Source: a virus (Duplodnaviria > Heunggongvirae > Uroviricota > Caudoviricetes). Taken from it: a DNA stretch of 59,077 nucleotides. Below are positions 33,001 through 36,000 of the stretch, one piece after another. The stretch's first letter is position 1. Every line of letters starts with the position of its first letter. The position numbers are program-made. Where the stretch lies: IMG/VR virus record IMGVR_UViG_2690316267_000014; one strand, written 5' to 3'.

Positions 33001-36000
33001 CCATTCCGACTGCATCATCTATGAGGTTATCTGCCTCGAGATACTTCGCGTATCCACGGTGTCTGACGGCGTGGGTGTTACGCTGAGAAAAAGCATTTGA
33101 AGGTGGCAAAAGTCTGGAACCACGAGTCCGTTTCGTTTCTGCCAAATTTGCGCATTTTTCATCACAACCATCATCGCCTGAAGGCTCGTCATGACTGGAG
33201 TTGCCGTCAGATTTCTGCGCACTTTTTTGATCATCAATTTGCGCATTTTTCTGCGCACTTTTCTCTGTATTTCTGGGGGAGTGTTTGCGCAGTTTAATGT
33301 ACCGCCGAGCCGTGTCATAACTGATATTGTTCTGACGGCACCAGTCCTGAAGCTTTATGCCGGTTTTGACATGTTCGCGTCGAAATGCCTGCTCCAGCTT
33401 TTTCCAGTCCAGCTTTGCCATGTCACCTTCTGACGTTCTCTGTTAAAAACTGATGCACAATGACTGCTGTAAATTTTCAGATTTCACACAGCAGAGCCAT
33501 GTCTGATTAATGTTTAACCTTATTTAGGTTATATCCGCTTCATTCCACTACAGCACCAGATAGGCTGCCTCGCGGATAAATGCCAAAGTCTCCTGATATA
33601 GAAACCCGTCGCCACATCGAGCGCTGATCAACATTTGTATATTCACTGCGACAGAAAGAATTTATTTTATTGAATAGTTAGAAATACAGAATTGCATGCT
33701 TTATAAGCATTGACGCACACTTCATTTTTAGCAATATATTCTGTTCTCATAGACGATCAGCCCTGCATGCACTGCCGGACACCGTCGGCAATTTTACAGA
33801 CCTAAGAGGCAATACCAAAAAGCTAACGCGCTTTATCAAGACTTGAACAACCAACCAATAAAAAAAGCACCAGTACCGCTACCAATGCCCATTTCGTCGT
33901 TGTTCACAGCATTCTGTGTACCCACTGTATTTCGCGTCATATCACCACGTCAGACAATCCTTAAGGATTACATAAGATTTACGCATAATAATGCCCATTT
34001 TCAACACAGACAAGGGAATTTATATGTTAAATCAAACGCTAACAAAATCTCTTCTTATATTTTTACTTGTCATAATCGTTTCTGTATCCATCATATACAT
34101 TGTAAGAACTCCAGTCAGACTTGATGTGAACGATGTCACTGAGATTAACCAGAAACATCCCATTATTTTTCTCATCCGGCATGGGGAAAGATGCGATCGC
34201 TCCCAAAGAATATGTCTTTCAGCACATGAGGGAATCACAGTAAACGGAGCTAACAAAGCTCAACAATATGGAGATAAATTCAGAAGAATGTTTCCATACT
34301 ACAGTCTCTATTCTACAGACACACTCCGAACAATGCAGACAGCCACTTTTTTTTCGGGAGGTAAGACAGCAACTATTCCGGACATATCGACATGTGATGA
34401 TAACGCAGTAAATAATATCCTTAAAATATCAAAATCAGATCATGTTACTGTGATTTTCACACATAATCACTGTCTGTCCAGAATTGCAAAAAAAATGAAT
34501 GGATGGAGATTTAAACCTGATTATATGGGCACACTGGTTCTGCATCGGGAAAATCACAATCTGATTCTCGACGGACATTTAAAACCAAACGAGCTTACCC
34601 AGTGATCCATTTGTTGATAATGCACTGGCATTGATTCAGGTTATATCTCTCCTCATAAAAAAGGCCAGCGATTGAGCTGGCTCTGTTAATCGAGGCATTG
34701 CATCCTGATGTACTCCTGCAGGTAGTTAACCTGCGCGGTTATCTTGTCGATTCCACTTCGGAGACGGTAATAATTGAGTTCAGCATCTGCTGTAAGTCCT
34801 GAGCTTTCTCCATCGCCCATGCCGCTGGCTCCGGTCGTTGACTTTGCACAGGTGGCGGCGACTTGCAGGCGCTTACGCCCAGCAGAAACATCAGCACGGA
34901 GACTTTCAATAGTCGCGTTAGCATCAGCAAGCTCCCTGGTGTATCTGGCATCGAGTGCAGCAACATCACGCTGGCGCTGCTGTATGTCAGCAATGGTGGC
35001 GTTCGCCTGGCTGAGTTTTGTCTTCGCATCATCTCGCTGCTCTTTGTAGGTGATGGCGTTATCACGGTAATGGTCTGTTGCCAGCCACAGCGATCCACAA
35101 CCAAGCAGCAGGACAATAAGCACGCCATACAGCACACGATTCATATCACCACCAACGGATTGCCCAGACCAGAACAGCAATTGCCACAATACGAATGGCA
35201 AAAGCTGCCGCTCTTGTTAAATCCAGACTTGCTGGCGTCTCCACCTCAATGCCTTTCATAATGGACAACCTCAGAAAGAATCTTTTATACTTCCTCACAG
35301 GGAAAGAACCTCCCTACCCATAATTTCTCCCTTGCCTTATTCAAGGTCAGAAACACAAAACCCCGCTTGCTGCCAACAAACGGGGTTTTTACTTTTACTC
35401 ACTTAAATTTTGCCAGTTCGCAGGATTTCGTGTTATCCGTTCGCGTTGGTCAACGGCATTTTTCAGCAGAATATTCTGCTTATCTGTCGATACTCCAGCA
35501 CGCCAGCGCGCTCTCCTGGTCACGCCGCGATACCTGCCCGTAACAGTTATTTGAGCGGTTCCGACAGTCCCTGCCGCCGTCATATATCCATCGGCGGATT
35601 TCAGCACATGCACCTTTCCGGTCTCCTGCGTTCAGTTTCCGGTAAAACGTTGAGGTGAAGCATTTCGAAGGCCCGATGTTGTACGGACAGAATGACGCGA
35701 TGCCCGCTTTCTGCGGTTCGGTCAGTGGCACTCTGATGTTTTTCTCCACCCATGCCAGCGCCTTATCACGCTCAATGGCGTTAACCCGGTCGCATTTTTC
35801 CTTCGACAACTTCATGCCCGGAACGACAGGTTTGCCATCCACCAGGATGGCACCGCGGCAGATAGTCCAGATACCCGCACCATCACGGTATGCCGTGGTG
35901 TGGTTACCTTCTTTTTCGTCAAGAAACTGGTCGAGGATTTCAGGCGCAGAAGCGCCCGCAGCAATCAGCGCCAGAACGACCGCTGATAAACCATAGCGGA

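Follow-up and report, generated by a model that had tools for sequence, protein, structure and literature searches.

The window analysed here is the whole 59,077-nt stretch of the virus record IMGVR_UViG_2690316267_000014, and it carries late genes of a lambdoid prophage, which are transcribed from the minus strand. A gene running in the opposite direction is located at 34024-34605 on the plus strand (stop codon included), between terS, encoding the small terminase (32606-33421, minus strand), and the last lysis gene, a lysis/Rz gene (34686-35144, minus strand), to which it is convergent. It encodes a 193-amino acid (aa) paralog of the Ais/PmrG-family histidine phosphatases that is identical to RefSeq WP_000934362.1. 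An earlier reading made from the sequence alone (the sequence-only reading) had placed a plus-strand gene convergent to Rz between the lysis cassette and the terminase, and this layout was confirmed. A direct repeat resembling the PmrA/BasR box is located upstream of the gene, and the gene and its putative promoter are the subject of the present analysis.

The open reading frame (ORF) at 33991-34605 (plus strand) is the one plus-strand ORF in a low-GC stretch. The ATG at 34024 was chosen as the start, as it was in PGAP/RefSeq (193 aa), and a Shine-Dalgarno-like sequence, AAGGGA, read directly from the sequence at 34012-34017 (plus strand), is located 6 nt before it. The ATG at 33991, which would give a 204-aa ORF, was rejected because it lies within the −10 region described below and precedes the predicted transcription start. 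The longer protein, beginning at the 33991 ATG, appears in some database entries (P0001, 204 aa), probably as the result of a mis-called start. No convincing small ORF was found in the 602-nt intergenic region, and an Rfam scan of 33300-34800 detected no RNA family.

The assignment of the product to the Ais/PmrG family, which had been put forward together with a BLASTP and hidden Markov model check, was borne out. The protein scored 202 bits against NCBIfam PRK15416 (NF011945; lipopolysaccharide core heptose(II)-phosphate phosphatase), above the cutoff of 142, and K-12 Ais, a Salmonella homolog, and the TraG protein of IncI plasmids scored 392, 366, and 294 bits, respectively. BLASTP showed 43% identity with K-12 Ais over 158 aa (E 7e-44). 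Pfam His_Phos_1 (PF00300) was matched at 28.9 bits (gathering cutoff, 21.7), with only model positions 1-67 aligned. The PmrG equivalog model (NCBIfam NF052369) was not passed (113 bits vs 170); because K-12 Ais and the Salmonella homolog (146 bits each) also fail, this result says little about orthology, and the cutoff was rejected as an uninformative orthology test. The family membership itself was already known, RefSeq having named the protein.

The motifs on which the sequence-only reading had relied (RHGERCDRS, IFTHNHCL, and FKPDY) and the hydrophobic N-terminus were all found in the translation. The catalytic motif RHGERCDRS, with the nucleophile His53, occupies aa 52-60 (34177-34203, plus strand) and is invariant over an alignment of 30-35 family members. 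IFTHNHCL and FKPDY occupy aa 144-151 and 163-167, respectively, and the HNHCL block (34462-34476, plus strand), in which H147, H149, and C150 are invariant, contains the second catalytic-core histidine. The other invariant residues in the alignment are R52, H53, E55, R56, D58, and R59 as well as C57 and C64, and R102 is retained in at least 90% of the aligned sequences. The catalytic core of histidine phosphatase branch 1 is complete, with R52, H53, G54, R56, R59, H147, and H149 all invariant or conserved. The AlphaFold2 model (predicted local distance difference test score, 93.9) has the histidine-phosphatase (alpha/beta phosphoglycerate-mutase-like) fold, and the top Foldseek matches in the PDB were phosphoserine phosphatase, SixA, RosC, and PhoE (probability 1.0, E about 1e-7). 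A sequence search of the PDB gave only weak matches to fructose-2,6-bisphosphatase domains and no solved Ais-family structure. AlphaFold2 also predicted an N-terminal hydrophobic helix at aa 2-28 (34027-34107, plus strand), in which the hydrophobic stretch spans L10-V27; this helix would serve as an export signal or a signal anchor. A location in the periplasm would also fit the four conserved cysteines.

The phage protein shares with E. coli Ais and Salmonella PmrG not only the PRK15416 match but also RH(G/A)ERCDRS, R102, THNHCL, the conserved cysteines, a predicted N-terminal export segment, and a similar size (193 aa, compared with 200 aa). On the other hand, the alignment showed that chromosomal Ais has a shorter signal peptide ending in an AWS-type cleavage motif, whereas the phage clade has a longer hydrophobic stretch followed by RTP and lacks the AWS motif. 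Because its PRK15416 score is about half that of chromosomal Ais, the phage protein was placed in a divergent clade within the family, and the comparisons indicate that it belongs to a distinct Ais-family clade and is not a recent copy of chromosomal ais. A recent capture of chromosomal ais together with its promoter was rejected, given the 43% identity of the two proteins and the lack of a separate box at K-12 ais. Among the lineages, the pairwise ratio of nonsynonymous to synonymous substitution rates (dN/dS) was 0.15-0.3, with dS ranging from 0.3 to saturation; these ratios indicate that the gene is maintained by selection.

The gene is located in a low-GC cargo cassette of 1.26 kb (33422-34685) between terS and the lysis gene, and the GC profile showed 36-42% GC in this cassette versus 50-55% in its flanks. 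A GC-rich hairpin at 34664-34681, recognised by its minus-strand intrinsic-terminator score, lies between the convergent stop codons of the phosphatase and lysis genes and may terminate transcription on both strands. A terminator scan revealed a further terminator-like hairpin at 33865-33890 (minus strand), at the other cassette edge, and there were four terminator-like sites in 1.4 kb versus 0.7 expected. Two hairpins of this kind on the late-operon strand thus enclose the cassette, and antitermination by Q would be required for late transcripts to pass through the antisense gene.

The comparison with lambda bor, a central point of the sequence-only reading, held, since bor occupies the equivalent slot and is convergent to Rz. 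Like bor (and lom), the phosphatase gene has an envelope-acting product and a lysogen promoter of its own (in this case predicted), and the genes share a position immediately behind the final lysis gene, on the strand opposite to the late operon. They differ in that bor encodes a lipoprotein without sequence relation to the phosphatase, which is an enzyme whose promoter is apparently activator-dependent. Phage records H93-H116 were compared with the window, and in Stx2a (Shiga toxin 2a) phages such as P13374, phi191, and POCJ13 the flanks are about 91% identical and the slot holds genes for a Rha-like regulator and an Ant antirepressor. Because phages with such similar flanks carry rha/ant there, the slot is a cargo site and the phosphatase gene one of its alternative cargoes. 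The earlier designation of the gene as a moron is thereby supported: it has a putative promoter of its own, flanking terminator-like hairpins, and atypical GC content, and it is present or absent among related phages.

Protein searches retrieved many paralogs of 191-194 aa with 43-99% identity. The prophage copies retrieved (83, 76, 72, 67, 64, 54, and 50% identity) all occupy this slot, each being convergent to the final gene of the lysis module and lying upstream of the gene for the small terminase, although the modules around them vary: the lysis module contains a lysozyme with Rz/Rz1, a GH108 endolysin, or an M15 peptidase endolysin, and the terminases are of the Nu1/GpA, Terminase_2/6N, or DUF1441 type. 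Some ais-bearing prophages also hold an AraC-family gene. The exact locus and allele were found in 43 of the 5426 complete E. coli genomes searched, the O104:H4 outbreak lineage among them, and DNA-detectable paralogs of any kind in 83 of these genomes. Among 50,697 phage records, the gene was found in one, phage GER2. No family was matched in PHROGs and no model in PADLOC. Damaged copies also exist, one being truncated (P0066), two frameshifted (L031 and L035), and one carrying the substitution C57Y (L038).

The prophage in the window is 933W/Stx-phage-like, and stx genes are absent between Q and the nanS-like esterase gene. The other late genes, all on the minus strand, encode an esterase (36903-38813), a holin (36018-36233), a lysozyme (35480-36013), and the large terminase (terL, 30919-32625). 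Except for the tail-fibre and early regions, the window is collinear with the O104:H4 prophage beside ynfF (NC_018658.1 2539000-2585000). The annotation of that prophage lists further cargo, namely cor, an Ail/Lom protein, Hok toxins, and RelE/ParE and Doc toxins.

The putative PmrA/BasR box CTTAAG-gatta-CATAAG at 33960-33976 (plus strand) matches YTTAAK-N5-YTTAAK at 11 of 12 positions. It is followed by a −10 region at 33984-33992 (plus strand), in which CATAAT (33984-33989) begins 7 nt and AATAAT (33987-33992) 10 nt past the box; the box and the −10-like CATAAT that had been read from the sequence were thus both present. The box is located 48-64 nt upstream of the ATG at 34024 and overlaps the expected −35 position upstream of the −10 region, which is the layout of the PmrA regulon at the sequence level. 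The promoter scan called no canonical σ70 −35/−10 pair for the phosphatase gene, as expected for an activator-dependent promoter. The box alone was rejected as stand-alone evidence because it occurs at chance frequency: four matches with at most one mismatch were found in the window versus 2.75 expected, a count that includes this near-palindromic site twice, once per strand. The composite of box, 10 nt, and −10-like hexamer occurred once in the 59-kb window on either strand, compared with 0.03 expected (0.0007 within this intergenic region), the 10-nt spacing rule having been derived after the homologs were seen. A weak opposite-strand σ70-like match, TTGTCT-17-TATTAT (9/12), is located at 34013-33985 (minus strand) and overlaps the phosphatase −10 region.

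Eight lineages of paralogs have a box with at most two mismatches at −64 to −71 from the ATG, and in three of them the box is perfect. The sequence is CTTAAG-N5-CATAAG in the 100% and 76% identity lineages, ATTAAT-N5-CATAAG in the 72% lineage (with a third in-phase half-site upstream), CTTAAG-N5-CTTAAG in the 67% lineage, CTTAAG-N5-TTTAAG or TTTAAT in the 64% lineage, GTTAAG-N5-CTTAAT in the 54% and 50% lineages, and ATTAAG-N5-TTTAAT or TTTAAG in a plasmid-borne derivative, the 66% lineage. In the box-bearing lineages, exactly 10 nt separate the box from a −10-like hexamer (AATAAT, TATAAT, TATATT, CATAAT, or AACAGT). The mean pairwise identity among the deep lineages was 0.80 and 0.73 in half-sites 1 and 2, respectively, and 0.72 in the −10 hexamer, compared with 0.30 in the 5-nt spacer, 0.45 in the 10-nt spacer, and 0.33 both in the 30 nt upstream of the box and in the 20 nt downstream, the half-site values being somewhat inflated by anchoring of the alignment on the best box of each lineage. 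The dS between box-bearing lineages is about 1 or saturated. The invariant bases of the box are TTAA and TAA, and these are the bases specifically contacted by PmrA in structural work on PmrA-DNA complexes (PMC10570014). No box was found in the negative controls, which were IncI traG, two fimbria-linked copies, and an island copy beside a SPATE (serine protease) autotransporter gene.

Several individual alleles deserve mention. The 72% clade (L005-L007 and L042; about −78 to −51) has three in-phase half-sites that recur every 11 bp (CTCAAG-N5-ATTAAT-N5-CATAAG), and 10 nt beyond the third there is a perfect TATAAT. In a Salmonella copy with 70% identity (L008/L009 2212-4000), IS3-family transposase genes are located directly upstream and have replaced the promoter. 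The copy on plasmid p48B2a (L038 4920-5501) keeps the box ATTAAG-cgtta-TTTAAT but has RHGERYDRS, with Tyr in place of the otherwise invariant Cys57; it sits among insertion sequence elements, near fimbrial genes.

A 14.5-kb portion of the K-12 genome (ais-arnB and eptA-basRS-pmrR) was used as the positive control. The sole boxes with at most one mismatch in it were those of the arnB, pmrR, and eptA promoters; in each, a 10-nt spacer leads to a −10-like hexamer (TAAAAT, CATACT, and GAGCAT, respectively). The prophage promoter thus shares with arnB (pbgP), eptA (pmrC), and pmrR the repeat YTTAAK-N5-YTTAAK in place of the −35 element, the 10-nt spacing, and the −10-like hexamer, and differs from them in that its box is putative, has one mismatch (CATAAG), and is prophage-borne. 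The experimentally studied pbgP box of Klebsiella pneumoniae, CTTAAT-N5-CCTAAG at −37 to −21, departs from the consensus in CCTAAG, at the position that also deviates in CATAAG of the window (PMC10570014). Chromosomal Ais/PmrG orthologs are divergent from the arn (pbgP/pmrH) operon, a position that the prophage gene does not share. K-12 ais, which is located beside arnB, lacks a separate box and shares that of arnB, about 190 nt from the ais start codon. For this reason the prophage promoter is not a copy of the chromosomal ais promoter; with its own box-N10-(−10) arrangement it resembles arnB-type promoters. The prophage clade with its PmrA-type promoter nevertheless has a regulatory parallel in the chromosomal gene, since ais (pmrG) is a member of the Salmonella PmrAB regulon (PMC1525208). 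The earlier proposal that the gene is wired to the PmrA regulon was supported at the sequence level: the repeat, 10-nt spacer, and −10 hexamer are conserved across prophage paralogs in the layout of three K-12 BasR promoters, whereas the single box on which the proposal was based is weak evidence.

Taken together, these results suggest the following mechanism. Because the late operon runs antisense to the phosphatase gene, expression in a lysogen would depend on the gene's own promoter, in which the PmrA/BasR-type repeat takes the place of the −35 element and ends 7-10 nt upstream of the −10-like hexamer. BasS would sense Fe3+, Al3+, or mild acid and give rise to phosphorylated BasR, which would bind to 33960-33976 and recruit RNA polymerase as at arnB, eptA, and pmrR, with transcription beginning near 33996-34000. 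Judging from the N-terminal helix and the four conserved cysteines, the phosphatase would be exported and either anchored in the membrane or secreted to the periplasm. It would act at the periplasmic face of the inner membrane and, by homology, remove phosphate from the inner core of lipopolysaccharide (LPS), this phosphate being the heptose II phosphate as for Salmonella PmrG. Salmonella PmrG has been reported to dephosphorylate LPS core heptose II (Nishino 2006, cited by PMC8129183). Loss of this phosphate would make the core less negatively charged and less able to bind metals, and would alter the surface recognised by phages and conjugative pili. We therefore propose, as an account that is somewhat favoured overall, that the gene occupies the lambda bor slot as a lysogenic-conversion moron, encoding an Ais/PmrG phosphatase that remodels the LPS core under a PmrA/BasR-type promoter; a host envelope-stress circuit thus appears to drive a prophage surface-remodelling gene. 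The polymyxin effect suggested earlier was weakened, and a large phenotype is unlikely, because resistance to polymyxin B did not change when pmrG was deleted from a PmrA-constitutive E. coli (PMC8129183).

Ais-family paralogs are also found outside prophages. On the one IncI plasmid examined, the I-gamma/K1 plasmid pHU590 (LC567080.1; L046 4878-5462), the homolog is traG, a transfer-region gene beside the rci shufflon. This TraG is 38% identical to the window protein (E 1e-47); both are Ais-family paralogs on mobile elements, and traG differs in lying inside a transfer operon and in having no PmrA box upstream. Of 1440 plasmids with a homolog, 1383 are conjugative. The closest non-prophage relatives (43-57% identity) are linked to fimbrial, AraC-family, or EAL-domain genes: one closes a chaperone-usher fimbrial operon, after an EAL-domain gene (L048 3014-4585), another is located beside an EAL-domain gene and a SPATE autotransporter gene (L013 2464-4582), and a third directly follows two AraC-family genes (L050 1281-3941). 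A truncated prophage paralog from enterotoxigenic E. coli (P0066) is named 'transcriptional activator AfrS' by one source, a name that is unconfirmed. AfrR and AfrS were reportedly described by Cantey et al. in 1999 as activators of the AF/R1 pilus operon. The AfrS-like paralogs share the length and motifs of the phage protein and differ in context, in the absence of a PmrA box, and in this unconfirmed name.

A number of observations weigh against the proposed account, in addition to the post hoc spacing rule and the anchored alignment. The identity of 43% to Ais and a PRK15416 score of about half the chromosomal values (202 vs 392 and 366) mean that the substrate of the phage protein could differ from that of Ais, and the added benefit of the gene is questionable in E. 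coli, which already has chromosomal ais. With regard to the promoter, the spacer is 10 nt (AATAAT) or 7 nt (CATAAT) depending on the choice of −10 hexamer, and the position of the K. pneumoniae pbgP box implies about 8. Furthermore, in the 83% allele (L003/L004, about 3930-4000) the first half-site is CAAAAA and the gene is intact; the box is therefore not indispensable. This loss, the chance frequency of the box alone, the absence of a box belonging to K-12 ais itself, and the composition of the region (about 40% GC, with many TTAA-like words) would all fit an Ais-family moron whose promoter is independent of BasR, being either controlled by another regulator of the OmpR/PhoB family (e.g., the PmrA paralog QseB) or simply AT-rich and constitutive or silenced by H-NS. 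Such a promoter is nevertheless unlikely in our judgement, given that the half-sites are conserved and the 5-nt spacer is not, with an 11-bp period, which is the pattern of a direct-repeat operator; that the PmrA consensus is matched, perfectly in three lineages; that the distance from box to −10 equals that in three K-12 BasR promoters; and that there is no −35 element.

An AfrS-like accessory factor for fimbria or adhesin expression, with an effect probably exerted indirectly via envelope changes and without general remodelling of LPS charge, is suggested by the 43-57% identical paralogs beside fimbrial, EAL-domain, and AraC-family genes, by the plasmid copy near fimbrial genes, and by the AraC-family gene in some ais-bearing prophages. 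The window protein, however, combines a predicted export helix with a complete phosphatase active site and lacks a DNA-binding domain, and AraC-family and fimbrial genes are absent from this prophage in the O104:H4 annotation. This role, which we regard as quite improbable, would in any case be compatible with LPS phosphatase activity as the underlying mechanism. Decay to a functionless remnant might be read from the rarity of the gene and from the truncated or altered copies described above, but it is highly improbable in view of the dN/dS values, the invariant catalytic residues, the conserved promoter core, and the intact frame in the window. Receptor masking, in which editing of the LPS core would lower adsorption to the lysogen of competing phages or of IncI thin pili, which bind LPS, is compatible with the LPS-remodelling moron under BasR-type control and would be its selected benefit. 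In its favour, the family recurs on mobile elements, from the prophage bor slot to the mostly conjugative plasmids and to IncI traG next to the shufflon/thin-pilus region, and the exclusion genes cor and lom are also present in this prophage. A stress-inducible promoter would be odd for constitutive exclusion, however, and neither PADLOC nor PHROGs gave a match; we consider masking an unlikely benefit.

R64 PilV adhesins bind recipient LPS. Ais-family phosphatases may, more speculatively and with little likelihood at present, be a general LPS-core-editing tool of mobile elements, employed by bor-slot prophages with a BasR-type promoter, by IncI conjugative plasmids as traG, and by fimbrial and virulence islands as AfrS-like copies. 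Each would remove core phosphate so as to mask or retune a surface receptor, affecting phage adsorption, PilV-LPS mating contacts, or adhesin display, and in prophages the enzyme would be induced through the sensor with which the host detects metal and acid envelope stress.

No publication on a prophage-borne Ais paralog, its promoter, or its locus tags was found in the literature searched. Three points are new: an Ais clade that has diversified while remaining fixed in the bor slot of lambdoid prophages with mosaic genomes, a PmrA/BasR-type promoter that is conserved in this prophage clade and specific to it, and a link to IncI traG and AfrS-like genes. A natural set of alleles with perfect-box, one-mismatch, and broken-box promoters is at hand, and three poorly explained gene sets, the prophage ais paralogs, IncI traG, and the AfrS-like genes, are tied to one enzyme family. 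If BasR drives the gene, it would be a clear case of a prophage that recruits a host two-component regulon for surface-modifying cargo. It would add a mobile, strain-variable component to the LPS-remodelling response under PmrA/BasR control, and tolerance to metal and cationic stress as well as LPS-dependent uptake of phages or plasmids could then be affected.

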